This document shows, one piece after another, positions 2,538-23,532 of a stretch of 24,000 nucleotides of DNA. The stretch covers positions 3,606-27,605 of the forward strand of contig JAZPZL010000045.1 in assembly GCA_045544655.1 (NCBI GenBank), given 5' to 3'. The stretch comes from Eubacteriales bacterium. Lineage in GTDB: Bacteria > Bacillota > Clostridia > Oscillospirales > SIG627. Position 1 is the first letter of the stretch. Every line of letters begins with the position of its first letter. The position numbers and the translations under genes were made by a program. A model generated the notes under the pieces. That model ran no database searches, was not told where the DNA came from, and saw only the letters and a program-made list of their open reading frames with translations.

Positions 2538-3869
2538 ATGCGTAAGATCGCCTCAATTTTGTTGGCATTTTGTTTGATGGCAGGGCTTTTGCCCGTATCG
2601 GCGGCGGAGTATACCTTTGCCGAGCCCATCGAGCAGGATAAGTGGAAGGATCCGGAGTTTTCCACGGACCACGCCTATTCCATTGCCTTCGTGGGCGATC
2701 CTCAGTTTATCAACAACAGCGACGTCAATTTCGGGGAAAAGAAAATGGAGCAGCTGTTCGGGGTCATTGCCGACACCGCCGAGGAGCGGAAGCTGAAGCA
2801 CGTATTCGTTTTGGGTGACATTACCCACGCAGGCTACCGCAACGACTCCAATCTTGCCTTCGCGCACAACTCCCCCCCCATTACTTCGGAATGGGAGAAC
2901 GCCCAAAAGTCCATTTTGCAGTTGAGTGACGCGGGCATTTCCTACTCTCTTTGCCGCGGCAATCACGACGACTATATGATGGACGATTACTTTAACGTCC
3001 ATGCCTACACCGATCAGTTCAAGGACTGCGGCGGATTTTTCAGCGATTCCGAGGCCAAGTATACCAAGGCGCGCGAGCCGAAGAATCCCGATAATTACGT
3101 TTATTGGAGTGCGACCACCGGCTACCACAAGGAGTCCATCGTCAATTCCTACAAGACGGCGGAGATCTGCGGAAACAAGTACATTTTTATTACCGTGGAC
3201 TTTAATCCCACGATGAAGGTGGTGAAATGGCTGAACGGGATCCTGGAGGAATACTCCGATCACATGGCGATCGTCACCACCCACGCCTATATCAATAAGC
3301 TTGGCAAGCATCTGACCTACAACGACGGCACCATGTACGATCACGGCGTTGCCGCTCCTCAGCTTTGGGAGTCTTGTCTCAAGCTCCACGAAAATCTTCT
3401 GATGGTGGTCTGCGGCCACGTGGGATCCATCAAGCCCGTGGTGTCTGCCCGCAAGGGAGTCAACGGAAACACGGTGCGCGAGATCCTGATCAATCCCCAG
3501 AATTACGATCTGAACCGTGAGTCGGGCGGTGGTGTTCAGGATACGGGCGCGGTTGTGTATATGAACTTCTCCGAGGACGGAGGAAAGGTGACCTTCGACC
3601 ATTACTCCACCCTGATGAATAAGGAGTATGCCCACGAAAATTATCCCATGACCCTTTACAAGGAGAAGCCCTTGTTCCTCGAGGAACAGGAGGTAGATGC
3701 CAAGGTGGAGGAGGAAAAGAAGCCCGATCCCGTTCCTTCCGCTTCTACCGAGCCTCAGCTTCAGGGACAGAGCGGCATCGGAGCGGTGATCGCCGTGATC
3801 GCAGGTGCCCCGGCAGTTGCCGCCGTTGCCGTGGTGATCGTCGTGGTAAGGAAGAAAAAGAAGAAATAG
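2538..3869 (+). CDS. Secreted, C-terminally membrane-anchored calcineurin-like metallophosphoesterase (paralog 1)
   Basis: 443 aa. Signal peptide MRKIASILLAFCLMAGLLPVSA/AEY with an AXA-type cleavage site. Metallophosphoesterase motif series: VGDPQ, VLGDITH, RGNHDD, VTTHAY, CGHVG. The C-terminus has a hydrophobic helix (GIGAVIAVIAGAPAVAAVAVVIVVV) followed by RKKKKK. AAGGAG RBS lies 6-12 nt upstream. Confidence 0.85.
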   Translation: MRKIASILLAFCLMAGLLPVSAAEYTFAEPIEQDKWKDPEFSTDHAYSIAFVGDPQFINNSDVNFGEKKMEQLFGVIADTAEERKLKHVFVLGDITHAGYRNDSNLAFAHNSPPITSEWENAQKSILQLSDAGISYSLCRGNHDDYMMDDYFNVHAYTDQFKDCGGFFSDSEAKYTKAREPKNPDNYVYWSATTGYHKESIVNSYKTAEICGNKYIFITVDFNPTMKVVKWLNGILEEYSDHMAIVTTHAYINKLGKHLTYNDGTMYDHGVAAPQLWESCLKLHENLLMVVCGHVGSIKPVVSARKGVNGNTVREILINPQNYDLNRESGGGVQDTGAVVYMNFSEDGGKVTFDHYSTLMNKEYAHENYPMTLYKEKPLFLEEQEVDAKVEEEKKPDPVPSASTEPQLQGQSGIGAVIAVIAGAPAVAAVAVVIVVVRKKKKK

Positions 3870-3875
3870 GATGCA

Positions 3876-3944
3876 GGGCTTTGCCCCGCACCCCACAAGG
3901 AGCTTTTTGAAAAAAGCTCCTTGACCTGAAAAACTTATTAAGGG
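3876..3944 (+). repeat. Interspersed intergenic repeat, copy 2
   Basis: Nearly identical to copy 1. Here the core is a perfect 26-nt palindrome, aaggagctttttgaaaaaagctcctt (3897-3922). Confidence 0.8.
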
Positions 3945-3955
3945 AAGTTTCTTTG

Positions 3956-3979
3956 GTTCTTTCTTTTCAAAGAAAGAAC
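3956..3979 (+). promoter_or_regulatory. Leader hairpin upstream of metallophosphoesterase copy 2
   Basis: Same 9-bp stem and 6-nt loop as 2486-2509, offset by exactly 1470 bp. Confidence 0.4.
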
Positions 3980-4007
3980 GAAAAACGGAAAATACAAGGA
4001 GATTTTT

Positions 4008-5339
4008 ATGCGTAAGATCGCTTCAGTTTTGTTGGCTCTTTGCCTGATGGCAGGGCTTTTGCCCGTATCGGCGGCGGAGTATGTCTACGGCGAGCCGATG
4101 GAGCCGGAGCTTTGGATGGAGCCTGACTTTTCCACGGATCACGCCTATTCCATCGCTCTGGTGGGGGATACCCAGTGCCTGAGCCGCTGTGACATTCAGG
4201 ACGGAACGAAGGCTATGGAGCAGCTGTACGGTGTCATTGCCGATACCGCCAAGGAGCGGAAGCTGAAGCACGTATTCGTTTTGGGCGATATTACGGATAT
4301 GAGCTACCGCAACGACAGGAATCTGGGTTACGCCATTTTTCAACAGCCTATGACCTTGGAATGGGAAAATGCTCAGAAGGCGATCCTGCAAATGAGCGAG
4401 GCGGGCATTTCTTATTCGCTCGTTCGCGGCAACCACGACGACTATATGATGGACGATTATTTCAATATCCCCGCCTACACCGATCAGTTCAAGGACTGCG
4501 GCGGCTTTTTCAGTGATTCCGCCGCTAAGCATTCGGGGGGAGAGGAACCCCGCAATCCCGAAAATTACGTATACTGGAGCGCCAAGACGGGTTACCACGA
4601 AAAATCCATCGTGAATTCTTATAAGACTATGGAGATCTGCGGGACCAAATATCTGTTTGTGACCGTGGATCACCACCTGACCATGAACGTTATTAACTGG
4701 GTGGATGAGACCCTGGCAAAATACCCCGATCATCTTGCCATCGTAGCCACCCACGCCTATATCGGCTCGGAGGGAAATCTGTTTTCCACCACCGAAGGAG
4801 ATACCCATCTGCCCAACGGACTTGCGGCGGAGCAGCTGTGGGAATTTGCTTTGAAAAAGCACGAAAACGTGCTGGCGGTGGTGTGCGGACACGTGGGAAC
4901 CCTTCGCCCCGTTTATTCCACGATGCGGCGCGGGATCCACGGAAACGTGGTGCGCCAGATCCTGGTGGATCCGCAGAATTACGATTACCGTGATGCCTAC
5001 GGCTCCGTAACCGGCGTTCAGCCCACGGGAATGGTTTTGTATATGAACTTTTCCGAAAACGGCGGAAAGGTGACCTTCGATTATTACTCTACCATTTTGG
5101 ATAAGGAAATGGTGGATGCGGATTATCCCCTGACCCTTTACAAGGAAAATCCCGTTGCGGATAAAAAGGCGATGGAGACCGTAGCCGACGCACAAAAGGA
5201 TCCCGTTCCCACCGCCTCCACCGAGCCTCAGCTTCAGGGACAGAGCGGCATCGGAGCGGTGATCGCTGTGATCGCAGGTGCCTCGGCAGTTGCCGCCATT
5301 GCCGTGGTGATCGTCGCGGTAAGGAAGAAAAAGAAATAG
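4008..5339 (+). CDS. Secreted, C-terminally membrane-anchored calcineurin-like metallophosphoesterase (paralog 2)
   Basis: 443 aa, roughly two-thirds identical to paralog 1 by eye. Motifs: VGDTQ, VLGDITD, RGNHDD, VATHAY, CGHVG. Signal peptide and C-terminal anchor (GIGAVIAVIAGASAVAAIAVVIVAVRKKKK) are nearly identical to paralog 1. Confidence 0.85.
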   Translation: MRKIASVLLALCLMAGLLPVSAAEYVYGEPMEPELWMEPDFSTDHAYSIALVGDTQCLSRCDIQDGTKAMEQLYGVIADTAKERKLKHVFVLGDITDMSYRNDRNLGYAIFQQPMTLEWENAQKAILQMSEAGISYSLVRGNHDDYMMDDYFNIPAYTDQFKDCGGFFSDSAAKHSGGEEPRNPENYVYWSAKTGYHEKSIVNSYKTMEICGTKYLFVTVDHHLTMNVINWVDETLAKYPDHLAIVATHAYIGSEGNLFSTTEGDTHLPNGLAAEQLWEFALKKHENVLAVVCGHVGTLRPVYSTMRRGIHGNVVRQILVDPQNYDYRDAYGSVTGVQPTGMVLYMNFSENGGKVTFDYYSTILDKEMVDADYPLTLYKENPVADKKAMETVADAQKDPVPTASTEPQLQGQSGIGAVIAVIAGASAVAAIAVVIVAVRKKKK

Positions 5340-5344
5340 GATCC

Positions 5345-5390
5345 GCAAAACCTTTTTTTGAAAAAAAGGTTCTGCACTCCAAAAAACTTC
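5345..5390 (+). repeat. Interspersed intergenic repeat, variant B copy
   Basis: Sequence gcaaaacctttttttgaaaaaaaggttctgcactccaaaaaacttc. The reverse complement of 22556-22597 is almost identical, differing only in homopolymer lengths. Confidence 0.8.
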
Positions 5391-5412
5391 ACTCGAAAAA
5401 AACGAAAAAAAG

Positions 5413-5443
5413 GATCCCCGCAGAAAGGATTTCCGTGGGGATC
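5413..5443. terminator. Bidirectional rho-independent terminator between convergent genes
   Basis: Stem gatccccgc / gtggggatc with one G-U pair. It is flanked by an A-run (5404-5411) on one side and tttctttt (5444-5451) on the other. That places a U-tract after the hairpin on both strands. It lies between the stop of the metallophosphoesterase gene (5339) and the stop of the FHA-TIR-kinase gene (5450). Confidence 0.7.
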
Positions 5444-5449
5444 TTTCTT

Positions 5450-7423
5450 TTATGATTTGGATAGCTTATCAATGAGCTGAAGCACGATCTCCTTGGAGGT
5501 GGGGTCCAGAGAGATCAGCTTTGCCATAGCATCTGCCAGACGCGGGTCTACGTTTGCCGCCGGCTTCTGTGGTTTCATCGGAACGACGGGACCTTGACCG
5601 GGTACGGCGAAACCGCTCTTCGGTGGGACGGCAGGACCTTGACCGGGTACGGCAAATCCGCTTTTCGGCGGGACAGCAGGGATCTTCCCGGGTACGGGGA
5701 AGGAGTCCTTGCTTTTTTTTGTTTTTTTCGGTGTGCGGACCTTGAAGAAGGGCTTTTTCACCAGGTGATCGACGTTTTCCAGATCCTTCAGAAGCTCCTC
5801 TGCTGATTGATAACGTGCCTCGGGATCCTTTTGGGTACATTTTTTGATGATATACTCAAGTCCCGTGGAAAGGGAGGGATCCACTTCCCGAATAGGCAGG
5901 ATCTCGTAGGGAGGCTCGGCGGGGTTTTTCCCCGTAACCAGATGGTAGAGGGTAACGCCCAGACTGTAGAGGTCCGTTCTGGCATCCGTCTGACCCATAC
6001 CGCCGTATTGCTCCGGTGCGGCGTAGCCTCGCGTTCCCAGACAGGTGGTATCGGCGGCGGCGCTTTTCTTGTATTCGCGGGCGGTGCCGAAATCAAGGAT
6101 CTTGATGCTTCCGCCGGGCTGAAGCATAATATTGGCAGGCTTTATATCTCGGTGGATGATGGGAGCGGGACGGGAATGCAGGTAATCGAGAACGTGACAA
6201 ATCTGCTTTGCGATGTCCAGGGTCTGATGTTCGGCAAGAACCATCCCCTCATCCAAAAACTGCTGCAGACTTTTTCCTTCCACGTATTCCATAATCAGAA
6301 GAATGGTCTCCGGCTTTTTGATTATGTCGATGAAGACGGGGATGGCAGGGTGATTGAGGCTTCGGACAATGGAAATTTCGGACAGGAAGGACTCCCAGAC
6401 GATATTGAAATTTTTGGTTTTTTCCTTCAGGATTTCCTTGATTGCCCAGTGCTTATTCGTGGTAAGGTTTTCCGCCAGAAAGACGGTGGAAAAGCCGCCT
6501 TGCCCGATTTTTTTCAAAATGCGGTATTTTCCATCCAAAACGGAGTCAATCTGTAAACGCGTGCCGTCAGATACGGGAGAAGGGGACGATTCCTTTTCTC
6601 CCCCTGAGAGGATGGTGGTTTCATTACCGCCGGATTTATGCTTATAGAGATAAGTGGTATCGTCACCCTTCTGACGGAAGGAGGTGGCTCCGCTCAAGAT
6701 ACCTCCCACGAAACGGATCAGCGCTTCCTCATTGTCGTAGGACTGGAGGGGAGCCAGATTGGCAGGCAGGTCGTTTACGGGAAAATCCTTGGAGCGGTAG
6801 GTGACGATGGTGCGGGTCTTTCTTCCCTCTCTCAGCCACAGATTGCTGAACATTTCAATTTCGTATGAAACCCAGTCGGAGGTGATGTTTGCGCGATTGG
6901 TTCCCACGGCAATAAAGACCTTCGCCTGCTCGAGGGCGGTGGCGATGATGGTCATATAATTGGATCTGCCGCTTGCATCCACGGAGTATTTACTGAAAAA
7001 GGGATTGTACCCCTTGGCGCGAAGGGCGTGGTACAAGGACTCTGCCATTTTCACGTCCCGTCCGGGGAATCCGTTTTCCTCCGTATTGCGGAAGGAAATG
7101 AAAATATCGTACTTTTGCGTTACGTCACCGCACGCTTTTTGAAAAGAAAGTTTTTGATTGCCGACGGTGATCTCATCCTTGAATTGCAAGGGATGCTCTG
7201 TGTTTGGGGGGATGGGAGTTCCGTTTAAGAAGGTGCCGTTGGTGGAATTCAGATCGGACAGGTAATAGCGATCTTCCTTGCAAGTGATCCTACAGTGAGC
7301 GCGGCTGACCGCAGGGGAGGAGAGCATCAGGTCTACGAAATTCTGCGCGGTCCCGATGGTAAAAAAGGGCTTGTCGATCAGCGTGATCTGATTCGTTTGA
7401 AGATTCTGTAATTGCGCCGCCAT
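5450..7423 (-). CDS. FHA domain / TIR-like domain / Hanks-type Ser/Thr protein kinase fusion protein with a Pro-rich repeat tail (cytoplasmic; no TM segment seen)
   Basis: 657 aa.
- aa 17-94 (7142-7375): canonical FHA (FTIG ... VSRAHCRI ... YYLSDLNSTNGTFLNG ... ITVGN).
- aa 104-230 (6734-7114): TIR-like (YDIFISFR ... AESLYHALRAKGYNPFFS ... AKVFIAVGT ... SDWVSYEIEMF ... TIVTY).
- aa 299-550 (5774-6529): complete kinase core. G-loop is IGQGGFSTV, VAIK Lys is in WAIKE, then HRDIKPANIML, DFGTA and APEQ.
- aa 576-617: PAVPPKSGFAVPGQG repeats.
- GAAGGTGA RBS lies 7 nt upstream of the ATG. Confidence 0.9.
   Translation of the reverse strand: MAAQLQNLQTNQITLIDKPFFTIGTAQNFVDLMLSSPAVSRAHCRITCKEDRYYLSDLNSTNGTFLNGTPIPPNTEHPLQFKDEITVGNQKLSFQKACGDVTQKYDIFISFRNTEENGFPGRDVKMAESLYHALRAKGYNPFFSKYSVDASGRSNYMTIIATALEQAKVFIAVGTNRANITSDWVSYEIEMFSNLWLREGRKTRTIVTYRSKDFPVNDLPANLAPLQSYDNEEALIRFVGGILSGATSFRQKGDDTTYLYKHKSGGNETTILSGGEKESSPSPVSDGTRLQIDSVLDGKYRILKKIGQGGFSTVFLAENLTTNKHWAIKEILKEKTKNFNIVWESFLSEISIVRSLNHPAIPVFIDIIKKPETILLIMEYVEGKSLQQFLDEGMVLAEHQTLDIAKQICHVLDYLHSRPAPIIHRDIKPANIMLQPGGSIKILDFGTAREYKKSAAADTTCLGTRGYAAPEQYGGMGQTDARTDLYSLGVTLYHLVTGKNPAEPPYEILPIREVDPSLSTGLEYIIKKCTQKDPEARYQSAEELLKDLENVDHLVKKPFFKVRTPKKTKKSKDSFPVPGKIPAVPPKSGFAVPGQGPAVPPKSGFAVPGQGPVVPMKPQKPAANVDPRLADAMAKLISLDPTSKEIVLQLIDKLSKS
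5589..5700 (-). repeat. 45-bp in-frame tandem repeat (about 2.5 copies) encoding PAVPPKSGFAVPGQG
   Basis: ggaccttgaccgggtacggc starts at 5589 and again at 5634, giving a 45-nt period. A degenerate third copy starts near 5679. It lies within the C-terminal tail of the FHA-TIR-kinase ORF. Confidence 0.9.
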
Positions 7424-7450: not shown

Positions 7451-7479
7451 ATTATACCGATCTTGGCGGAAAATGTCAA
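7451..7479 (-). promoter_or_regulatory. Consensus sigma-A promoter of the FHA-TIR-kinase gene
   Basis: On the minus strand: TTGACA (7479-7474), exactly 17 nt, TATAAT (7456-7451). The -10 lies about 28 nt upstream of the ATG at 7423. Confidence 0.7.
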
Positions 7480-7531
7480 ATGCTTGAATTTGTCTTGCGA
7501 AAATTTTTGTGATGTGTTTCTATAACGTGAA

Positions 7532-7554
7532 AGAGAACGGAGGATCCGTTCTCT
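7532..7554 (-). terminator. Hairpin immediately downstream of tyrS; probable operon terminator
   Basis: 9-bp stem agagaacgg / ccgttctct with loop aggat, 9 nt after the tyrS stop. The better T-tract (ctctttttgctttta) is on the plus-strand side, and the minus-strand tail is only UUUCACGUU. Efficiency and orientation are therefore uncertain. Confidence 0.45.
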
Positions 7555-7562
7555 TTTTGCTT

Positions 7563-8783
7563 TTATTTGGTAATTTTGATAAAGACCTTTTTGCCCTTGC
7601 GCAGGATGAATTCCGCGTCGAAGTCGGAGGCGGGGAAGGTGGTGCCGATGTCGGTGACCTTCTCATCCTTTGCGGTTACGCCGCCCTGCTGAATGAGTCT
7701 GCGCGCTTCGCCGCGGGAGGGGCAAAGCCCGGTCTTCACCAGAAGGTCCATAATATTGATGGCGCCGTCGGTGAAATCTGCGTCGGTCAGGGTGTGGGTG
7801 GGCATATTGGCGTTGTTACCGCCGCCGCCGAAGAGGGCGCGAGCCGCTTCCTGCGCCTTGTCAGCCTCCTCCTTGCCGTGAACCAGGGTGGTCAATTCGT
7901 ATGCCAGGATCTCCTTTGCACGGTTCAGCTGACTGCCTTCCCAGGCGTCCATCTTGTCGATCTCCTCCAGAGGCAGGAAGGTGAGCATACGGATGCACTT
8001 AAGCACGTCGGCATCGCCCACGTTTCTCCAATACTGGTAGAAGTCGAAGGGGCTGGTCTTTTCGGGGTCCAGCCAAACGGCACCGCTCTGGGTCTTACCC
8101 ATTTTCTTGCCCTCGGAGTTGAGGAGCAGGGTAATGGTCATAGCGTATGCGTCCTTGCCGGTCTTTTTGCGGATCAATTCCGTACCGCCCAGCATATTGG
8201 ACCACTGGTCGTCGCCGCCGAACTGCATATTACAGCCGTATTTCTCGGACAGGTGATAGAAGTCGTAGGACTGCATGATCATATAGTTGAATTCCAGGAA
8301 GGACAGACCCTTCTCCATTCTTTGCTTGTAGCACTCGGCGCGAAGCATATTGTTGACGGAGAAGCAGGCGCCGACCTCGCGGAGAAGATCCACGTACTTC
8401 AGATCCAGAAGCCAGTCTGCATTGTTTACCAGGATCGCCTTGTCCTCACCAAAGTCGATGAAGCGCTCCATCTGGCGCTTGAAGCAATCGCAGTTGTGCT
8501 GAATGGTCTCGGGAGTCATCATGGAACGCATATCGGTTCTGCCGGAGGGGTCCCCGATGTAGCCGGTACCGCCGCCCACCAAAACTACGGGCTTGTTGCC
8601 CGCCATCTGCAAACGCTTCATCAGGCACAGCGCCATAAAGTGACCGCAGTGGAGAGAATCTGCCGTGGGGTCAAAGCCGATATAGAAGCGGGCGCCGCCG
8701 TTGTTGATCAATTCTCGGATCTCTTTTTCATCCGTTACCTGCGCGATGAGTCCGCGCGCTTGAAGTTCTTCGTAAATTCCCAT
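7563..8783 (-). CDS. tyrS: Tyrosine--tRNA ligase
   Basis: 406 aa. N-terminus LQARGLIAQVTDEKEIRELIN ... YIGFDPTADSLHCGH (HIGH-type motif). KMGKT is the KMSKS-type motif. C-terminal S4-like domain (SRGEARRLIQQGGV). Confidence 0.93.
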   Translation of the reverse strand: MGIYEELQARGLIAQVTDEKEIRELINNGGARFYIGFDPTADSLHCGHFMALCLMKRLQMAGNKPVVLVGGGTGYIGDPSGRTDMRSMMTPETIQHNCDCFKRQMERFIDFGEDKAILVNNADWLLDLKYVDLLREVGACFSVNNMLRAECYKQRMEKGLSFLEFNYMIMQSYDFYHLSEKYGCNMQFGGDDQWSNMLGGTELIRKKTGKDAYAMTITLLLNSEGKKMGKTQSGAVWLDPEKTSPFDFYQYWRNVGDADVLKCIRMLTFLPLEEIDKMDAWEGSQLNRAKEILAYELTTLVHGKEEADKAQEAARALFGGGGNNANMPTHTLTDADFTDGAINIMDLLVKTGLCPSRGEARRLIQQGGVTAKDEKVTDIGTTFPASDFDAEFILRKGKKVFIKITK

Positions 8784-8797
8784 GGTAAAGCCTTTCT

Positions 8798-10507
8798 TTA
8801 TCTTAATGTATCTTTTAATTTTTCAAATTCCGCAAGACCCTCCCGACGGAGCTTATCTGCGGCGCTTCTTGCTTCCTCGGAAAGCTCTCTGCCTCCCAGA
8901 AGCCTTGCGTTTTCCTTCAGACTGCCTTCCCCGTCCAGGGGCGTAAGACCCGTTTGCGTTCTGCCCTCCGCTTCCGTTTTTTCTACCAGGAAGTGGTGGT
9001 CTGCCAGGGTGGAGACCTGAGCGGAATGGGTCACGCAGAAGATCTGCCGATCCCGTGCAAGACAGCGCAGACAAATGCCGATCTTCTGTGCAGTCGCACC
9101 GGAAATGCCCGTGTCGATCTCGTCAAAGATCATAGTGGGCGCATCTTTCTCCTTGAGAAGCTTTAAGGAAAGAGCCAGCATAATACGGCTCATTTCACCG
9201 CCGGATGCCACCTGTGCCAGGGGCCCCGTGCCTTCACCGGTGTTGGCGGCAATGCCGAAGGAAACCCGTTCGCCGCCCTCGGGTGAAAAGCCGTCCTCGG
9301 GGGTGAAAAGCACGGAGAAGCGCATTTTGGGCATATCCAAAAAGGCAAGGGTGCCGTGGATCTCCCCTTCCAGAGCCTCAGCCGTTTTTTTGCGGGCAAG
9401 GGTCAAAGCGGAGGCGGCAGCCTCCAGCTTGCGGGAAAGGCTTGCCAAAGCAAGCTCACTCTTTTTTATATCATCTTTTCCCCGCAGAGTCAAGTCCTTT
9501 TTCTCTTTTATCTCTTCGTAATAGTCCAGGATCTCGTCAACGGACTTGCCGAATTTCTGCTTCAAGCGGTAGAGGGCGTCCATCCGCTTCTGAATGCGGT
9601 CCATCAGATCCCCCGGGTCCTCCTCGCCGTAATCGGAAAGGGCGGCGGAGAGGCTGTTTTCCAATTCCTTGGCGCTTTCCGCCAATTCGTACAGCTTTCC
9701 CGCGGTCTCGGCGTGATTCCCTTCTCCCAATTCCTCCAGCTTCCGCGCGGCGGCAGACAGGAGAAAGACGGCTCCCTTTCCCTTTTCCCCGCCGGAAAGG
9801 GCGCGATGGGCAGTGGCAACGGCACCGTATTCCTTTTCAAAATTCTGCAGGTGACGAAGCTTTTCCTCCAGCTTATCCTCCTCGCCCCGCTTAGGCTTTA
9901 CGCGGGCGATCTCCTGCATCTGATATTCGTAAAGGGCAAGCTTTTCCTTGCCGTCCAAAACGTCCTCGCGAAGCTTTTCCAAGGCTTTTTTCGCCGTCTG
10001 ATGCTCAGCAAAGGCAGCTTTGTACGCTTTAAGGGCATTTTGACCCTCTTGATCCAGCGCGTCGTCCAGATACCTTCTGTGATTTTTTTCGTCCAGAAGT
10101 CCCACGGCACTGTTTTGCCCGTGAATGGCAAGCAGCTCCGAGGCAAGGGCGGAAAGGCGGCTGAAGGGAAGGGTCCTGCCGCAAAGCTTGGACAGATTCT
10201 TTCCCGTGGCGTATACGATGCGGGTGAGGGTCACGCCCTCCCGCGCCTCCTCGGGATCCACCAGTTCAGACAGAGATGCGATCTGCTCCTCGGTCAGGTC
10301 GGTGAAAAACAGGGAGACCTCCAGCTTTTCTTCTCCGTGGCGCACCAATTCCTTTCCCCCCTTGGAGGACAGGAACAGACCCAGAGAATCCAGAATCAGG
10401 GATTTACCTGCGCCCGTTTCACCGGTCAGCACGGAAAAGCCCCGATGGAAATCCACCGAAAGGCGTCGGATCAGTGCAAGATCGGAAACAAACAGGCTGG
10501 TCAGCAT
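8798..10507 (-). CDS. recN: DNA repair protein RecN
   Basis: 569 aa. N-terminal SMC-like head with Walker A (FSVLTGETGAGKSLILDSL). Long coiled-coil middle. C-terminal signature and Walker B (ASGGEMSRIMLAL ... TMIFDEIDTGISG). Confidence 0.93.
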   Translation of the reverse strand: MLTSLFVSDLALIRRLSVDFHRGFSVLTGETGAGKSLILDSLGLFLSSKGGKELVRHGEEKLEVSLFFTDLTEEQIASLSELVDPEEAREGVTLTRIVYATGKNLSKLCGRTLPFSRLSALASELLAIHGQNSAVGLLDEKNHRRYLDDALDQEGQNALKAYKAAFAEHQTAKKALEKLREDVLDGKEKLALYEYQMQEIARVKPKRGEEDKLEEKLRHLQNFEKEYGAVATAHRALSGGEKGKGAVFLLSAAARKLEELGEGNHAETAGKLYELAESAKELENSLSAALSDYGEEDPGDLMDRIQKRMDALYRLKQKFGKSVDEILDYYEEIKEKKDLTLRGKDDIKKSELALASLSRKLEAAASALTLARKKTAEALEGEIHGTLAFLDMPKMRFSVLFTPEDGFSPEGGERVSFGIAANTGEGTGPLAQVASGGEMSRIMLALSLKLLKEKDAPTMIFDEIDTGISGATAQKIGICLRCLARDRQIFCVTHSAQVSTLADHHFLVEKTEAEGRTQTGLTPLDGEGSLKENARLLGGRELSEEARSAADKLRREGLAEFEKLKDTLR

Positions 10508-12598: not shown

Positions 12599-14414
12599 TT
12601 CCTCGGGCTGTCAGGCGGTGATCGGAAAGCAATTCCCGTGCCTTGCCGTGGGGAATAAACGTTTCATTCAATGCCAGGGTGCGATGGCGCACGCCTTCCA
12701 GAAGCCCCTGCTTTTCCAGCAGGGAGATGAGATAGTGGGAAAAACCGCCGATTTCCATTCCTTCCTCTACGAAGAGGATCTTCTTGGCGTGGCGGAAAAA
12801 TTGAGGGAGCTTTTCTTCGTCAAAGCCCTTCAGAACGGAAAAGCGAATGACGGAAACGCTTTTTCCCTGCTCCGCGTAGCGCCTTGCTCCTTCCAGACAG
12901 GCGGAGGTCATACGACCGAAGCACACCACTATCATACCATCTTTTTCGCCGTTTTCATAGTCTTTTTGCTCAATTTCCTCGGTGAGAGGGAAATTTTCGG
13001 CGATCAAGGGGTCGGGAGTGCCTTTGGGATAGCGGATCACCGAGGGGGTACATTCCTCGGCAAAGCTCTTTTCCAGGGCGCGCCTCAGCTCGGATTCCGA
13101 AGCGGGGGCGTAGATCCTGATCCCCGGAACGGGAAGGAGAAAGGGCAGGTCGTAAAGCCCGTGATGGGTGGCGCCGTCCTCTCCCGTGATCCCCGCCCGA
13201 TCCAGACAGACCGTAACGGGAAGCTTCTGCAAAGCCGCGTCGTGGAGAAATTGATCCACCGACCGCTGGAAAAAGGTGGAGTAGACCGCAAAGCAGGGGC
13301 GCATCCCTGCCGCCGCAAGTCCTGCGGCAAAGGTCATGGCGTGTTCCTCGGCAATGCCCGTATCAAAGAGCCGCTGAGGGAATTTTTCACCGAAGGTCTC
13401 CAGTCCGACGCCGCTTTCCATGGCGCTGGTGATGCAGACGATGCGCTCGTCCTTTTCCCCAAGGTCTGCCACGGTATCGCCGAAGATGCGGGAAAAGCTT
13501 TTTCCTGCGCTTTTTTCTTCGTTTTTGGGACTGAGTCCGTGGAAGCGGGAGGGATCCTCCTCGGCAGGGGCGTAGCCCTTGCCCTTTTTGGTGACCAGAT
13601 GAATGATGGAGGGGCCGCTTCGCTTCTTTGCTTCCCGCAGAAGGGCCTCTACCTGCTGCAGGTCGTTGCCGTTGGCGGGGCCGAAGTAGTGCAGACCCAT
13701 TTCCTCAAAAAGGTTTCCCATAGGAAGGGTCTGGCGCTTGACCACCCGCTTGACCCGCTTGGCAAGCTCCTCCAGAGAATCGCCCACCAGGGGAAGGGAA
13801 TCCAGAATTTCTCCCAATTCCTCCTTGAAGCGGTAATAGCGGGGGGTGCGGAGACGATTCAGGCTGGTGCGGAGCCGTCCCTTGCTTTTACCGATGCTCA
13901 TACCGTTGTCGTTGAGGATGATGATGATCCGATCACGGGGGGAGATGTTGTTCAGTGCTTCAAATACCATTCCGCCGGAAAAGGAGCCGTCTCCGATGAC
14001 GGCAACGGCAAAGCTGTCCTCTCCCCGCAGGCGCGCCGCTTTGGCAAAGCCCAGGGCGGCGGAAAGTCCCGTGCCGCTGTGTCCCGTTCCGAAGGCATCG
14101 TACTCCGATTCCTCTCTGCGGGGGAAGCCGGAAATGCCATCCTTTTGCCGCAGGGTGGAGAAGGCTTCTCCTCTGCCCGTAAGGATCTTGTGGACGTAGC
14201 ACTGGTGACCCGTATCGTAAATCACCTTGTCACGGGGGAGATCCATCACCCGCACCAGGGCGGTGGAAATTTCCACGATGCCCAGATTGGATGCCAGATG
14301 CCCGCCGTTTTCCGTCACGTATTTGACCAAAAACGAGCGAAGGAATTCGCAGTATTTTTGTGCGCCCGCCGTACTCAGGGCGCGTACTCCCTCGGGAGTA
14401 TAGGGGGCTTTCAT
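12546..14414 (-). CDS. dxs: 1-deoxy-D-xylulose-5-phosphate synthase
   Basis: 622 aa. GGHLASNLGIVEISTAL, DTGHQCYVHKILTGR, the ThDP motif GDGSFSGGMVFEALNN, and a transketolase-like C-terminal half. The start overlaps the xseB stop (ATGA). Confidence 0.93.
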   Translation of the reverse strand: MKAPYTPEGVRALSTAGAQKYCEFLRSFLVKYVTENGGHLASNLGIVEISTALVRVMDLPRDKVIYDTGHQCYVHKILTGRGEAFSTLRQKDGISGFPRREESEYDAFGTGHSGTGLSAALGFAKAARLRGEDSFAVAVIGDGSFSGGMVFEALNNISPRDRIIIILNDNGMSIGKSKGRLRTSLNRLRTPRYYRFKEELGEILDSLPLVGDSLEELAKRVKRVVKRQTLPMGNLFEEMGLHYFGPANGNDLQQVEALLREAKKRSGPSIIHLVTKKGKGYAPAEEDPSRFHGLSPKNEEKSAGKSFSRIFGDTVADLGEKDERIVCITSAMESGVGLETFGEKFPQRLFDTGIAEEHAMTFAAGLAAAGMRPCFAVYSTFFQRSVDQFLHDAALQKLPVTVCLDRAGITGEDGATHHGLYDLPFLLPVPGIRIYAPASESELRRALEKSFAEECTPSVIRYPKGTPDPLIAENFPLTEEIEQKDYENGEKDGMIVVCFGRMTSACLEGARRYAEQGKSVSVIRFSVLKGFDEEKLPQFFRHAKKILFVEEGMEIGGFSHYLISLLEKQGLLEGVRHRTLALNETFIPHGKARELLSDHRLTARGIEKELYELEQTGSISLS

Positions 14415-14650
14415 CTGGTGCCGCCCTGGAAGGGGCCCTCGGTGGGAGTGCCGTCACTTCCGGTGGTGAGCTGGGTCACCTTCTGCTGTGCCGCATCCAG
14501 CTTATCGGTGCAAAGGCGCACCAGCTTTGCCCCTTCCTCAAAGAGGGCGAGAGAGGTATCCAGGGGAGTTTCCACGTTGTCCAGAGCGCGGACGATCTCC
14601 TCCAGTCGCTTCAGCATTTCTTCAAAGCTCTGATTTTTCATTTCTTCCAT
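14411..14650 (-). CDS. xseB: Exodeoxyribonuclease VII small subunit
   Basis: 79 aa. SFEEMLKRLEEIVRALDN ... TPLDTSLALFEEGAKLVRLCTDKLDAAQQKV is the typical XseB helical hairpin. It overlaps xseA by 13 nt. Confidence 0.88.
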   Translation of the reverse strand: MEEMKNQSFEEMLKRLEEIVRALDNVETPLDTSLALFEEGAKLVRLCTDKLDAAQQKVTQLTTGSDGTPTEGPFQGGTR

Positions 14651-17212: not shown

Positions 17213-18331
17213 TCAGTAGGAGGTAACGCGGATCACGCCTCCTACGGATTGGATCTTTTCGATCTCGAACGCCGCATCACGCTCAGCAAGGAGGTAGGTG
17301 TAGCCGCCACGGGTGCCGCGGGCAATATTGCCCCCTGCAACCAGAGCTTCTACGTCGACCCCTTCCTTCATAATGATGCCGACACGGTTCTGCATGGATC
17401 TGCCCAGTTTGACTGCGGGCATATTCACGCTGTTTTTGATGTTGCCGTTTACCAGGTAATCGGCAAGCTGGTCACACGCCATTACGGCGCAATTGTCCTC
17501 CGCCTCGGGAGTGGATGCACCCAGGTGGGGAGTAGCCACCACGCCCTTTTGACCTGCCAGAGCGCCGGTGGGGAAATCGGTATAATAAGCGGCGATCTTT
17601 CCGCTTTCAATGCCTGCCAGAATGTCTGCGTCTACGCCCAGATCTGCGCGGGCAAGGTTCAGAAGGCGAACGCCGTCACGCATTTTTGCAATGTTCGCAC
17701 CGCCCAGAATTCCCTTGGTAGAGGGCAGGGAGGGTACGTGTACGGTAATATAGTCGGACTCCTTGAAGATGCGGTCCAGATCGTCAACCTTTTCAACGGC
17801 GGGATCCAGCACCCAAGCGGCGTCAACGGAAGCGTAAGGGTCGTAGCCCAATACGCGCATGCCCAGAGCCAAAGCCGCGTTGGCAACGCCGCCGCCGATG
17901 GCGCCCAGACCGATGACACCCAGAGTCTTTCCCATAATTTCAGGACCTACGAAGCGGCTCTTTTCCTTTTCCACCAGCTTCAGAGCGTCGGGATTGCCGG
18001 AAAGAGTCTTTGCCCATTCCATGGCGTCGGGAACCAGACGGGAGGTGAGAAGAAGGGCGGCAACTGCCAGCTCCTTTACCGCGTTGGCGTTGGCACCGGG
18101 GGTATTGAATACCACGATGCCCTCCTCGGCGCATTTTTCGGTGGGAATGTTGTTCACGCCTGCGCCTGCACGGGCAATGGCGCGCAGAGATGGGGGGAAG
18201 GAAGCCTCGTGAAGATCCGCAGAGCGGACCAGAATGCCGTTTTCCTCGGTGATCTCTTCTCCCACCGTAAAGGTATCGGGAAGTCTTTTCAAACCGCAAT
18301 TCGCGATTTTATTATACAACTTAATTTTCAT
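17213..18331 (-). CDS. serA: D-3-phosphoglycerate dehydrogenase (2-hydroxyacid dehydrogenase family)
   Basis: 372 aa. NAD-binding GVIGLGAIGGGVANAALALGMRVLGYDP. Catalytic-domain motifs (RAGAGVNNIP, VATPHLGAST). Adjacent to serC. Confidence 0.85.
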   Translation of the reverse strand: MKIKLYNKIANCGLKRLPDTFTVGEEITEENGILVRSADLHEASFPPSLRAIARAGAGVNNIPTEKCAEEGIVVFNTPGANANAVKELAVAALLLTSRLVPDAMEWAKTLSGNPDALKLVEKEKSRFVGPEIMGKTLGVIGLGAIGGGVANAALALGMRVLGYDPYASVDAAWVLDPAVEKVDDLDRIFKESDYITVHVPSLPSTKGILGGANIAKMRDGVRLLNLARADLGVDADILAGIESGKIAAYYTDFPTGALAGQKGVVATPHLGASTPEAEDNCAVMACDQLADYLVNGNIKNSVNMPAVKLGRSMQNRVGIIMKEGVDVEALVAGGNIARGTRGGYTYLLAERDAAFEIEKIQSVGGVIRVTSY

Positions 18332-18349
18332 TTTGTATACCCCTTTTTC

Positions 18350-19435
18350 TTAAATTTCTCCGCCTTTTTCGTCAAATTCCTTGATGAAAGCGGCCAGCTT
18401 CTCCACACCCTCTACGGGCATGGCGTTGTAGATGGATGCGCGCATACCGCCAACCTTGCGGTGGCCTGCCAGAGAAACCATTCCCCGCTCTGCGGCTGCG
18501 GCAACGAATTTCTTGTCCATTTCGGGATCGTCGGTACGGAAGGTGACGTTCATCAGAGAACGGGAATCCTTTTGTGCGTGGAGGTGGAACATTTTGGTCT
18601 CCTCGATTGCCTTGTAAAGGATCTCCGCCTTTTTCTGATTGATCTCGTGCATCGCCTTCACACCGCCCAGAGACTCGACCCACTTGAATACCAGACCTGC
18701 AATGTAGATGGCGTAGCAGGGAGGTGTATTGTACATGGAACCGGCGTCTGCCATTACCTTGTAATCCAGCATGGAGGGAGTTTCGGGACGGGCATTTCCC
18801 AAAAGATCCTCGCGGATGATGACGATGGTGAGACCTGCGGGGCCTACGTTCTTCTGCGCGCCTGCGTAGATCATGGCGAAGTCGGAAACGTTGATGGGCT
18901 CGGACATAATGCAGCTGGACATATCGCAGACCAGGGGCGTTTCACCGTTGTCGGGCAGGGTGTTGAAGTGGGTGCCGTAGATGGTATTGTTGTAGCAAAC
19001 GTGGAGGTAGTCTGCATCGGGACGGATATCTGCCTCGTTGAAGGCGGGAATGCGGTCGAAATTGGTTGCCTCGGAGGTGGCGATCACCTTCACGTCACCG
19101 TATTTCTTGGCTTCCTTGAACGCCTTGCCGGAAAATTCACCGCTGACCACGTAGTCTGCCTTGCCGGTCTTCATCAGGTTCAGGGGAACTGCGGCAAACT
19201 GGGTGGAAGCACCGCCCTGCAAAAAAAGTACCTTATAGTTATCCGGTACGTTCATTACGCGGCGGAAGGTTGCCTCAGCCTCCTTGATAATGGCATCGTA
19301 CGCCTTGGAGCGGTGGCTCATTTCCATTACGCTCATACCGGTGCCTTGATAATCGGTCATCTCCTTTGCCGCCTGCTCCAGCACGGGCAGGGGAAGCATA
19401 GAAGGTCCTGCGGAATAGTTGTATACGCGACTCAT
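18350..19435 (-). CDS. serC: Phosphoserine aminotransferase
   Basis: 361 aa. N-terminus YNYSAGPSMLPLPVLEQAAKEM ... GMSVMEMSHRSK. Body includes FLQGGASTQF and the PLP-lysine region GAQKNVGPAG. AAAGGAGAA RBS. Confidence 0.92.
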   Translation of the reverse strand: MSRVYNYSAGPSMLPLPVLEQAAKEMTDYQGTGMSVMEMSHRSKAYDAIIKEAEATFRRVMNVPDNYKVLFLQGGASTQFAAVPLNLMKTGKADYVVSGEFSGKAFKEAKKYGDVKVIATSEATNFDRIPAFNEADIRPDADYLHVCYNNTIYGTHFNTLPDNGETPLVCDMSSCIMSEPINVSDFAMIYAGAQKNVGPAGLTIVIIREDLLGNARPETPSMLDYKVMADAGSMYNTPPCYAIYIAGLVFKWVESLGGVKAMHEINQKKAEILYKAIEETKMFHLHAQKDSRSLMNVTFRTDDPEMDKKFVAAAAERGMVSLAGHRKVGGMRASIYNAMPVEGVEKLAAFIKEFDEKGGEI

Positions 19436-19475
19436 AACGTTTTCTCCTTTATTCTATAAAAAACAAATTTGTATT

Positions 19476-22609: not shown

Positions 22610-23371
22610 TTATCCGGCGAGAGATCGCATACGAAGGCGGAGGTTGTCAGCGATCATAGCGATGAATTCGGAATTGGTGGGCTTGCCCTTGCCGCCCTGA
22701 ATGGTGTAGCCGAAGAGGGAACCCAGCATATCCACGTCGCCCCGATCCCAAGCCACCTCAATGGCGTGGCGAATGGCGCGCTCTACCCGGGAGGAGGTGG
22801 TTGCGAATTCCTTGGCAACGCCGGGGTATAGGGTTTTGGTCACCTCACCGATGATGCGATTGTCCCGCACCACCATCATAATGGCGCATCTGAGATACTG
22901 ATACCCCTTGATGTGAGCGGGGATCCCCACCTGATGCAGAATGCGGGTCACCTGATTTTCCAGATCAAAATCATCGTGAATGGGGAACTTTGCCTCCCGA
23001 CATACCTGACGGATCTTATCTCCCAGCACCTCGTAATCAAAGGGTTTCAGAATGCAGGCGCTGATGCCTCCTGCAAAGGCGTCCTCCAGTACCTTGCGAT
23101 TGTTGACCGCCGTTACCAGAATGAATTTGGGGGAAGCCTCCTTCAGGCTCCGCTTTACCTCGCGGATCAGGCTGGCGGGATCGTACCCCGGAAACCACAG
23201 ATCCAGAAGGACCGCGTCCGGTCGCAGACTCTTTATGGCGTTCAACGCCTCTGCGCCGTCTCCGCTGTCACCTACGACCCGAAAGCCCATATTGGTCAGA
23301 CTCTCCTTGCATACGAAGCGGAAATCATTCCCCGAATCAATAATGTAAACCTTTTCCTGCAGCTCTTTCAT
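22610..23371 (-). CDS. spo0A: Sporulation master regulator Spo0A (receiver domain + Spo0A-specific DNA-binding domain)
   Basis: I place the start at [12 protein letters not shown] (23371), with an AGGAGAA RBS 8 nt upstream. The ORF-track start at 23506 would add 45 implausible residues. The C-terminal domain carries the diagnostic Spo0A signature: [16 protein letters not shown] ... [34 protein letters not shown] ... [14 protein letters not shown]. The receiver has the phospho-acceptor Asp (AVLLDLWFP), Thr (LVTA) and Lys (ILKPF). Confidence 0.92.
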
Positions 23372-23424
23372 AACGTGCTTTTCTCCTATCTGTCCTTTTT
23401 TCGTTTTTTGTAGATCGCTCTTAG

Positions 23425-23453
23425 ATATTACCAAAAATTGGTAAATAATGCAA
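23425..23453 (-). promoter_or_regulatory. Candidate sigma-A promoter of spo0A
   Basis: On the minus strand: TTGCAT (23453-23448), 17 nt, TAATAT (23430-23425), with TGG immediately upstream of the -10 (extended -10). The spacer is occupied by palindrome 23428-23444. Confidence 0.45.
23428..23444. promoter_or_regulatory. Palindromic operator candidate TTACCAA-AAA-TTGGTAA
   Basis: 7-bp arms with a 3-nt centre. It overlaps the -10 and spacer of the candidate spo0A promoter. Confidence 0.5.
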
Positions 23454-23469
23454 GAGGTTTTGAGAATAA

Positions 23470-23490
23470 AATTACCAATAATTGGTAATT
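23470..23490. promoter_or_regulatory. Palindromic operator candidate AATTACCAAT-A-ATTGGTAATT
   Basis: Perfect 21-bp palindrome with the same TTACCAA/TTGGTAA half-sites as 23428-23444. The centres are 44 bp apart. Confidence 0.5.
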
Positions 23491-23532
23491 TTGGAGGATT
23501 GAACAAAAGAAAGGGGTCCCCTTTTGCCCATC

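Follow-up and report, generated by a model that had tools for sequence, protein, structure and literature searches.

The 24,000-nucleotide stretch of contig JAZPZL010000045.1 analysed here (assembly GCA_045544655.1, Eubacteriales bacterium; hereafter, the window) carries a gene whose product combines FHA, TIR and Ser/Thr protein kinase domains in one polypeptide. The complete coding sequence, at positions 5450..7423 of the minus strand, starts with ATG, ends with a TAA stop codon at 5450-5452 and encodes a protein of 657 amino acids (aa), whose homologues share the N-terminal start MAAQLQ. The strand had been left unspecified in the initial annotation of this DNA. In a Pfam scan of the protein, the FHA, TIR_2 and Pkinase profiles each scored above their gathering cut-offs, and there is hardly any doubt about the three domain identities. 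The gene is an independent transcription unit. It has its own sigma-70-type promoter (TTGACA-17-TATAAT, 12 of 12 matches; 7451..7479, minus strand), found in a promoter scan and in the sequence itself, and an AAGGTG ribosome-binding site 5' of its ATG. A terminator-like hairpin 3' of tyrS (7529..7557), returned by the scan, divides it from that gene. Directly past its stop codon lies a likely intrinsic terminator (5404..5443, minus strand), a GATCCCC…GGGGATC hairpin followed by a T-run, which was read from the sequence and did not figure in the scan output.

Domain organization and conservation of the protein

The AlphaFold2 (AF2) model of the full-length protein has a predicted local distance difference test score (pLDDT) of 79.8 and a predicted template modelling score (pTM) of 0.46. 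It consists of four folded units, namely the FHA domain, the TIR domain together with a beta-hairpin (aa 246-260), the kinase domain and a C-terminal helical hairpin (aa 627-656), joined by two disordered stretches (aa 261-286 and 557-624). As claimed in the initial annotation, the protein has no transmembrane segment, the highest 19-residue Kyte-Doolittle mean being 1.40, and it is most likely a cytoplasmic, single-chain protein. Conservation was assessed mainly in an alignment of 44 TIR-kinase homologues that are 37-86% identical, and in a further set, made up of 49 cluster representatives. Selection was estimated from dN/dS, the ratio of non-synonymous (dN) to synonymous (dS) substitution rates, using pairwise Nei-Gojobori estimates among four orthologues.

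The FHA domain spans aa 1-97 (7133..7423, minus strand), with a Pfam core (PF00498) at aa 22-88 that scores 67.8 bits against a cut-off of 20.7 (E=1.2e-18). It aligns to the structures of OdhI, Rad53 and GarA; the closest solved FHA sequences are those of OdhI and GarA, and Rad53 FHA1 is also among the matches. The signature residues G24, S40, R41, H43, S60 (or T), N62, T64 and N67 are present, and they are invariant among the 12 FHA-bearing homologues. The phosphothreonine (pThr)-binding residues had initially been described as all present, which holds for G24, SRAH (40-43, with R41), STNGT (60-64) and N67 and fails at position 25, where a canonical Arg is replaced by Thr (see below).

The TIR domain (aa 103-243; 6695..7117, minus strand) is matched by TIR_2 (PF13676) over aa 107-230, with 35.0 bits against a cut-off of 28 (E=2.3e-8); the other TIR profile, PF01582, stays below its cut-off (14 bits vs 21.3). 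The AF2 model of aa 98-262, based on 24 homologous TIR segments, has the beta-alpha alternation of a TIR fold (pLDDT 85.3, pTM 0.82). Its top Foldseek matches in the PDB are all TIR domains, with a probability of 1.0 and TM-scores of 0.5-0.66, among them SARM1, Caenorhabditis elegans TIR-1, RPP1, L7, SPARTA TIR-APAZ, RUN1 and TIR-STING, and the lower matches are nucleoside-hydrolase folds (DNPH1, deoxyribosyltransferase and BcmB). The best structural matches are SARM1 and TIR-1 (7cm7, E=7e-6; 6o0u, TM-score 0.56-0.65), that is, NADase-active TIRs. The prediction of a TIR domain at aa 100-235 has thus been borne out, and its two motifs, YDIFISF at aa 105-111 and SDWVSYE at aa 182-188, lie at the positions initially given for them.

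The putative catalytic Glu of the S-x-W-x-x-x-E motif, E188 (codon at 6860..6862, minus strand), is invariant in both conservation sets. The other invariant columns of the domain among the 44 homologues include F108, I109 and S110 in betaA, as well as D123 and S182. A motif of the W-x-x-x-E type is common to the window protein and to SARM1 and TIR-1; in SARM1, it presumably reads KDWVHKE, with E642 as the catalytic residue. The family sequence profile also finds the plant TIR structures RPV1 and RUN1 and aligns the E188 motif on the Glu of their SRWCLDE, which we take to be E100 in RUN1 and equivalent to SARM1 E642. The TIR domain of the window protein is thus far a predicted NADase. Downstream of the domain, the conserved post-TIR motif F249-R-x-x-G253-x-x-T256-x-x-L259-Y260 (6644..6688, minus strand) is predicted to form a beta-hairpin, with AF2 strands at 246-252 and 255-260 of low to moderate pLDDT. 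Of the 34 sequences in which the post-TIR segment is present, 31 keep T256, and T256-x-x-L might serve as a ligand for the FHA domain.

The third domain (aa 296-552; 5768..6538, minus strand) is a Hanks-type Ser/Thr kinase, matched by Pkinase (PF00069) over aa 300-546 (191 bits, E=2.6e-56). The initial annotation had described its motifs as intact, and they are indeed complete at the positions expected: the G-loop GQGGFS (307-312), WAIKE (326-330, with K329), HRD (424-426), DFG (444-446) and APE (469-471). K329, E349, R425, D426, N431, D444, G446 and A469-P470-E471 are invariant in the 44 homologues. Since R425-D426 is invariant, the enzyme belongs to the RD class, whose members are usually controlled via phosphorylation of the activation loop. 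In that loop, T459 is a Thr in 41 of the 44 homologues, with T460 beside it, and L462 is a Leu in all 44. T459/T460 and L462 make up a pT-x-x-L pattern of the kind preferred by FHA domains, and the two Thr residues are candidate phosphosites. The nearest kin of the kinase domain are abundant Clostridial kinases anchored in the membrane and members of the Stk1/PknB family. Among related Clostridial kinases, one (P0009, 827 aa) is built as kinase, hydrophobic segment, FHA domain and second kinase, and another (P0015, 889 aa) has an internal duplication of the kinase C-lobe that may be an assembly or gene-call artefact.

The linker between the TIR and kinase domains (aa 261-295; 6539..6643, minus strand) is disordered, with a pLDDT below 50 for aa 261-286, and poorly conserved. 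The kinase domain is followed by a Lys/Pro-rich tail (aa 553-625; 5549..5767, minus strand) that is likewise disordered (pLDDT below 50 for aa 557-624) and has 16 Pro, 13 Lys and 10 Val among its 73 residues. It contains 15-aa repeats (…PPKSGFAVPGQGPAV…) encoded by 2.5 copies of a 45-bp tandem repeat (5588..5701; Tandem Repeats Finder), so that the Pro-rich repeat tail of the initial annotation is a genuine tandem repeat. The copy number of the 15-aa unit (…SGFAVPGQGPAVPPK…) varies from about 2.5 to about 5 among orthologues, P0002 and P0003 having more. Its core, GF(A/T)(V/I)PGQ, is also found in remote members of the family, reminiscent of a short linear binding motif. At the C-terminus, a conserved helical hairpin (aa 626-657; 5453..5548, minus strand) has the consensus K-L-x-x-L-D-P-x-S-x-x-x-V-x-x-L-I-D-x-L-S-K and AF2 helices at 627-638 and 641-656 (pLDDT ~86-89); it is kept in most TIR-kinases, with or without an FHA domain. 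Neither the hairpin nor the Pro-rich tail has a Pfam match at E<=10. The sole PDB sequence match of the C-terminal region, to an AP-3 beta helical repeat, was weak (full E 0.009, domain E 0.21) and was judged to be due to chance.

All domains of the protein are under purifying selection, and the TIR domain is the most constrained part, with dN/dS values of 0.06-0.15, as compared with 0.10-0.40 for FHA and 0.10-0.48 for the kinase. In the TIR-kinase linker, the values are mostly 0.7-0.9 where dS is unsaturated. The invariance of the catalytic residues, together with low dN/dS, indicates that the TIR and kinase domains have been maintained as enzymes, and both are quite probably active.

The TIR-kinase family and its partners

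Searching 1.84 billion cluster representatives with a profile of the TIR segment retrieved 7,858 proteins at E<=1e-3, of which 218 reached E<=1e-30. Among the best 49 matches, a protein kinase domain is present in 26 and an FHA domain in a single one, P0006 of the window clade; the family amounts to about 26 clusters at 50% identity. In a collection of species representatives (n=185,579), approximately 10 of the 80 best loci with this TIR subtype encode TIR-kinases, none of them with a fused FHA domain, and all come from gut Oscillospiraceae, Acutalibacteraceae or Clostridia metagenome-assembled genomes (MAGs). No close relative was found in the JGI metagenomes, where the best match is 42% identical; they yielded one more split FHA + TIR locus, L096. 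The window gene is a member of a small TIR-kinase family, accessory in nature, from Oscillospiraceae-like Clostridia of the gut. The TIR subtype itself is scattered among the species representatives, in Clostridia, Bacilli, Collinsella, Akkermansia, Acidobacteria and Burkholderiales, and it is elsewhere fused to methyltransferase, nSTAND1-TPR, LRR or WGR modules. Fusions with a class-I S-adenosylmethionine-dependent methyltransferase (proteins of ~450-465 aa) are widespread, occurring at L019, L024, L036 and some 30 further loci in genomes of Clostridia, Bacilli, Collinsella and Christensenella; we know of no characterised TIR-methyltransferase.

The FHA domain is associated with TIR-kinases in several ways. 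It is fused N-terminally in two clades, that of the window protein (P0001-6) and another one (P0019/22/24-26/30/31), and C-terminally in P0012, a TIR-TIR-kinase protein. At the loci L004/5 and L014, it is found at the C-terminus of a separate TIR-FHA protein of 647-654 aa, whose gene lies immediately upstream of that of the TIR-kinase, and at L045, L012 and L096 a small upstream FHA gene overlaps the start of the TIR-kinase gene. Of all the evidence for a joint action of the three modules, this pattern, with an FHA domain fused at either end or encoded next door, is the strongest, and it gives independent support from comparative genomics to the joint function that had been proposed from the window protein.

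Other partners are found in some relatives. A 1,150-aa protein that combines two AAA modules, one of Clp/Cdc48 type and one of FtsH type, with an M41 peptidase domain adjoins the TIR-kinase at L004/5, L013, L045 and L001/15, and an AAA module is fused to the TIR-kinase in L012 and P0047. The second AAA module of the 1,150-aa protease resembles the defence ATPase IetA (PADLOC, 4e-43). In gut Clostridia MAGs, these genes compose a conserved three-gene cluster (positions 2575-9962 of L004; also L005, L045, L013 and L014) for an AAA-AAA-M41 protein, a TIR-FHA protein and a TIR-kinase. The TIR-FHA protein has 647 aa, with coiled-coil, beta-domain, TIR and FHA parts, the TIR-kinase has a C-terminal beta-rich domain, and the second TIR domain of the cluster likewise keeps the Glu of W-x-x-x-E. 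PADLOC holds no system that matches this cluster. At two further loci (L009, 9470-14144; L010, 2258-6959), a gene for a shorter TIR-kinase of 470-475 aa is preceded by that of a small CD225-like membrane protein and followed by vWA, PP2C and second protein kinase genes, an arrangement that seems to represent a distinct type of operon around the same TIR-kinase.

The initial annotation envisaged a self-contained module, homologues of which might be patchily distributed and located in defence islands. The distribution is indeed patchy, the gene being missing from the close relative L090 described below and rare among the species representatives. Co-location with defence genes was seen in one relative, at the TIR-kinase locus L012, which abuts the BREX genes brxC and pglZ; in addition, L006 has genes for a kinase-Card1-nuclease and for PP2C in the vicinity. 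Nothing of the kind is present at the window locus, and the loci are too few for statistics. As for self-containment, the window clade has none of the partners listed here and is the most compact form in the family; the notion remains uncertain, as relatives carry an AAA+ protease, vWA, PP2C or a second kinase.

Presence, absence and chromosomal context of the gene

The FHA-TIR-kinase gene is an accessory, non-core gene, present or absent among close relatives with conserved flanks. A very close relative, the MAG that includes contig L090, whose TyrRS is 97% identical to that of the window, has kept recN-tyrS and both metallophosphoesterase paralogues that lie on the other side of the gene, with tyrS directly beside them, and tblastn detected no trace of the FHA-TIR-kinase gene in its contig. 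The blastn homology between the window and L090 stops at 7530, just beyond the hairpin that follows tyrS; this hairpin is also present in L090, where a T-run comes after it. In contrast, the gene occupies this site in L088, L089 and L094, and the order tyrS, FHA-TIR-kinase gene, metallophosphoesterase gene is kept in these three diverged contigs. Together with its rarity among the species representatives, the absence from L090 despite the same flanks shows that the gene is not a universally conserved core orthologue, a possibility that the initial annotation had left to be checked.

Where the gene is present, its copies diverge several-fold faster than the neighbouring tyrS: the same-site copies in the three contigs encode proteins 84%, 74% and 70% identical to that of the window, as compared with 96-98% for the TyrRS fragments. 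The window allele is mosaic, with a block encoding aa 246-445 (6089..6688, minus strand) that covers the linker and the kinase N-lobe through the catalytic loop. Relative to the closest homologue, P0002, dS is 0.03-0.15 in the flanks, whereas codons 246-445 have dS values of 0.54-0.67 and dN values of 0.23-0.38; amino acid identity is 56-66% in the block and 95-100% elsewhere. The sampled sequence nearest to the block is at most 63% identical, and the block was most likely acquired by recombination from a divergent allele that is missing from the sample. Positive selection on the kinase N-lobe was considered and rejected in favour of recombination because dS is raised together with dN and dN/dS is below 1.

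The neighbours are ordinary chromosomal genes of a spore-forming organism of the Clostridium class. In addition to the flanking genes considered below, they comprise tlyA-like, xseA, nusB, ddl, queT and spo0A genes, and the window TyrRS shares 83% identity with its Oscillibacter valericigenes counterpart, its closest matches being from 'Clostridia bacterium' MAGs. Two candidates for functional partners were rejected. The comM-like AAA+ gene at 445-1971 has ChlI, Mg_chelatase and Mg_chelatase_C matches in Pfam, a set that we take to denote the widespread ComM/YifB protein, and phmmer detected no similarity between its product and the AAA+/M41 partner of the relatives. The adjacent metallophosphoesterase genes are convergent to the FHA-TIR-kinase gene and persist in L090, which lacks it.

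These tandem paralogues (2538-3869 and 4008-5339) encode proteins of 443 aa each, which begin with a signal-like segment and end in a hydrophobic anchor. Their 80-bp leaders (2461-2540 and 3931-4010) are nearly identical, and each contains a perfect hairpin, GTTCTTTCTTT-TCAA-AGAAAGAAC, just 5' of the ribosome-binding site. A relative (L091, 13367-13401 and 9633-9667) has a 35-bp core of the leader, 100% identical, in an unrelated intergenic position, which suggests a shared regulatory or repeat element. The window also has very long antisense open reading frames at 4023-5348 (minus strand), 7509-9020 (plus), 2553-3896 (minus), 12618-14633 (plus) and 17249-19459 (plus). They lie opposite the metallophosphoesterase genes, tyrS, dxs and others, and since these sense genes have strong Pfam matches, the antisense frames are almost certainly non-coding shadows. 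Finally, the spo0A open reading frame (22610-23506, minus strand; 298 aa) begins with TTG, its receiver domain begins only at residue 53, and its exact sequence is missing from the protein collection; the true start codon is probably further downstream.

Possible mode of action and biological role

To our knowledge, all known TIR domains are switched on by induced proximity, and bringing TIR domains together is the general requirement for the activation of TIR NADases. What drives proximity differs between systems, from the oligomerisation of NLR receptors to Argonaute, STING filaments or ligand binding. We tentatively propose, giving it slightly less than an even chance, that the window protein is a phosphorylation-controlled, single-chain TIR enzyme. 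It would be made constitutively and held inactive by auto-inhibition. Phage infection or some other cue derived from an invader would be the most plausible trigger and would alter the activity of the RD kinase or the oligomeric state of the protein. The kinase would then autophosphorylate in trans, the candidate sites being T459/T460 in the activation loop (pT-x-x-L462) and T256 after the TIR domain (pT-x-x-L259), and the FHA domain of one molecule would bind the pThr of another. This self-association would bring the TIR domains together, and E188-dependent cleavage of NAD+ might result either in NAD+ depletion, with abortive infection or growth arrest, or in an ADP-ribose-derived signal. The clustering of TIR domains by FHA-pThr binding is the more doubtful component of this scheme. 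A switch of the opposite sign, in which an intramolecular FHA-pThr lock would be lost when an invader disturbs the kinase, is equally compatible with the observations.

The proposed mechanism has partial counterparts among known proteins. SARM1 and TIR-1 are also multi-domain cytoplasmic proteins, in which the non-TIR domains control the TIR domain via the oligomeric state. The window protein is only ~18% identical to them and has no ARM or SAM domain, and its TIR domain would instead be controlled by the attached kinase and FHA domains. TIFA, on the one hand, and Chk2 and Rad53, on the other hand, oligomerise by FHA-pThr binding, the pThr made by a kinase being read by the FHA domain of another molecule, and in Chk2 and Rad53 FHA and kinase are within one chain. 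The analogy of the window protein with TIFA-ALPK1 and Chk2/Rad53 is one of logic, with no orthology: their outputs are TRAF6 recruitment or checkpoint signalling, whereas that of the window protein would be a TIR enzyme, and its FHA domain does not have the canonical Arg. In animal innate immunity, the Myddosome couples the assembly of TIR domains of Toll-like receptors and MyD88 to the Ser/Thr kinase activity of IRAK kinases. Here too the likeness is only an analogy, as the animal TIR domain is a scaffold and the complex is made of separate proteins with death domains, while the TIR domain of the window protein keeps its Glu and is fused to the kinase.

A number of observations weigh against the proposed mechanism or against its role in defence. 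The Arg of the canonical FHA 'GR' pair, as aligned on the G-R of OdhI, is a Thr in the window clade (G24-T25); in the 12 FHA-bearing homologues, this column has Arg seven times, Thr four times (the window clade) and Lys once. Since the replaced Arg contacts the phosphate in canonical FHA domains, the domain may bind pThr weakly or in an altered manner. The T256 motif does not track FHA: some homologues that have no FHA domain possess it, and the clade whose partner carries one lacks it. In the full-length AF2 model, domain-to-domain geometry carries no confidence, as indicated by the pTM value. The genomic flanks are housekeeping genes (comM-like, tyrS, recN, argR, nadK and dxs) and the two genes for secreted metallophosphoesterases, and Pfam assigned none of the other annotated genes of the 24-kb window to a recognised defence family; in the window, the gene does not lie in a defence island. 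Only one distant relative was found among 2.9 million viral contigs, so that carriage by phages is not available as supporting evidence. The TIR segment alone has no PADLOC match at E<=1e-5, and the matches of the whole protein span only the generic kinase domain, aa ~290-570. Full-text literature searches gave no description of a bacterial FHA-TIR-kinase or TIR-kinase protein, in line with the initial remark that no characterised FHA-TIR-kinase protein was known to its author. In two surveys from the Aravind laboratory, TIR, FHA and Ser/Thr kinase domains are mentioned solely as separate alternatives among the effector modules of other systems.

The variable presence of the gene, its rapid and mosaic evolution and the partners that its relatives have speak for a role in defence or conflict, but because of the housekeeping context we hold this role to be about as probable as its contrary. 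The protein might instead serve in physiological phospho-signalling, with the kinase and FHA docking regulating stress, envelope, sporulation or NAD metabolism and the TIR domain acting either as a regulated output that consumes NAD+ or makes a nucleotide signal, or as an interaction scaffold, an explanation that we find distinctly unlikely. It would account for the housekeeping chromosomal setting and the strong constitutive promoter that the gene has for itself, for the synteny kept in three diverged contigs and for purifying selection on all domains. Moreover, the kinase is nearest to membrane-anchored Clostridial kinases and Stk1/PknB, and PknB-GarA/OdhI, the classic housekeeping pairs of kinase and FHA protein, provide the best FHA sequence matches; the FHA domain of GarA docks on the phosphorylated activation loop of PknB. 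PknB and GarA/OdhI are, however, conserved and separate housekeeping proteins, whereas the window protein is variably present, bears a TIR domain and is devoid of PASTA or transmembrane sensor. A physiological regulator also fits poorly with the absence of the gene from a very close relative with intact flanks, its great rarity across species representatives, a divergence several-fold above that of tyrS with an allele mosaic, and the AAA+ protease, vWA-PP2C set or BREX genes adjoining its relatives, and the invariant catalytic Glu speaks against a purely scaffolding TIR domain.

Alternatively, but improbably, the kinase might be the output of a defence system and abort infection by phosphorylating many proteins of host or phage in the manner of Stk2, a phage-sensing Hanks kinase, or PD-T4-6, with the TIR domain as an oligomerisation or nucleotide sensor and the FHA domain recruiting substrates. 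Like the window protein, Stk2, PD-T4-6, MAD6 and BREX PglW have a complete Hanks kinase, with single-gene organization as a further likeness, and strong PADLOC matches link the window kinase to the MAD6, PD-T4-6, MkoA and Stk2 models. Every catalytic residue of the kinase is invariant, and the linker and kinase N-lobe are the most variable, recombining parts, as expected of an invader-facing surface. However, these models match any Hanks kinase, and none of Stk2, PD-T4-6, MAD6 and PglW carries a TIR or FHA domain. Membership in the Stk2, PD-T4-6 or MAD6 families was rejected, as the matches are limited to the kinase and the NCBIfam scores remain far below cut-off (MAD6, 165 vs 460; PglW, 85 vs 990; PknB_PASTA, 225 vs 450); no MADS or BREX genes are present in the window. 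In addition, the invariant Glu and motif of the TIR domain and its strong constraint fit an enzyme better than a passive sensor, and the raised dS of the variable block denotes recombination and not diversifying selection.

With respect to the bacterial TIR defence systems, Thoeris ThsB, SPARTA TIR-APAZ, CBASS TIR-STING and SpbK have in common with the window protein a TIR fold with a conserved Glu and a patchy, accessory distribution, but all of them work without a protein kinase or FHA domain. The window has no gene for ThsA, pAgo/APAZ, CD-NTase or STING. A SPARTA or CBASS TIR effector was rejected, as the protein has no APAZ, STING or SAVED domain and no short pAgo or CD-NTase is encoded by its neighbours. 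Least probable of all is a Thoeris-like signal generator whose TIR domain would make a cyclic or modified ADP-ribose messenger for an effector encoded at another locus: TIRs of the same class do make signalling nucleotides in Thoeris and in plants, plant and bacterial TIRs are among the structural neighbours, and relatives have multi-gene partners (a second TIR protein, an AAA+ protease), but the 24-kb window holds no ThsA-type (SIR2, SLOG, Macro or transmembrane) or other candidate receiver gene, the NCBIfam scores are far too low (ThcB4, 16.5 bits vs 220; retron TIR, 18.5 vs 600), and the gene is gained and lost as a single-gene unit.

If the phosphorylation-controlled TIR enzyme that we propose is real, reversible protein phosphorylation would join the list of TIR activation routes. 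TIR domains are an immune currency common to bacteria, plants and animals. It is conceivable, if rather unlikely, that the window protein represents the first bacterial TIR enzyme gated by Ser/Thr phosphorylation that is read by an FHA domain, a one-polypeptide counterpart of TIFA and Myddosome logic, and a single-gene anti-phage system of gut Clostridia, with three genes in its relatives. In that case, one gene with three separable classes of point mutants would offer a compact and genetically tractable model. Should the protein turn out to be a physiological regulator instead, it would be a rare bacterial case of a TIR NADase in housekeeping signalling. The comparative data reveal an unannotated family in the abundant uncultured Oscillospiraceae of the gut, bacteria whose defence repertoires are poorly known.

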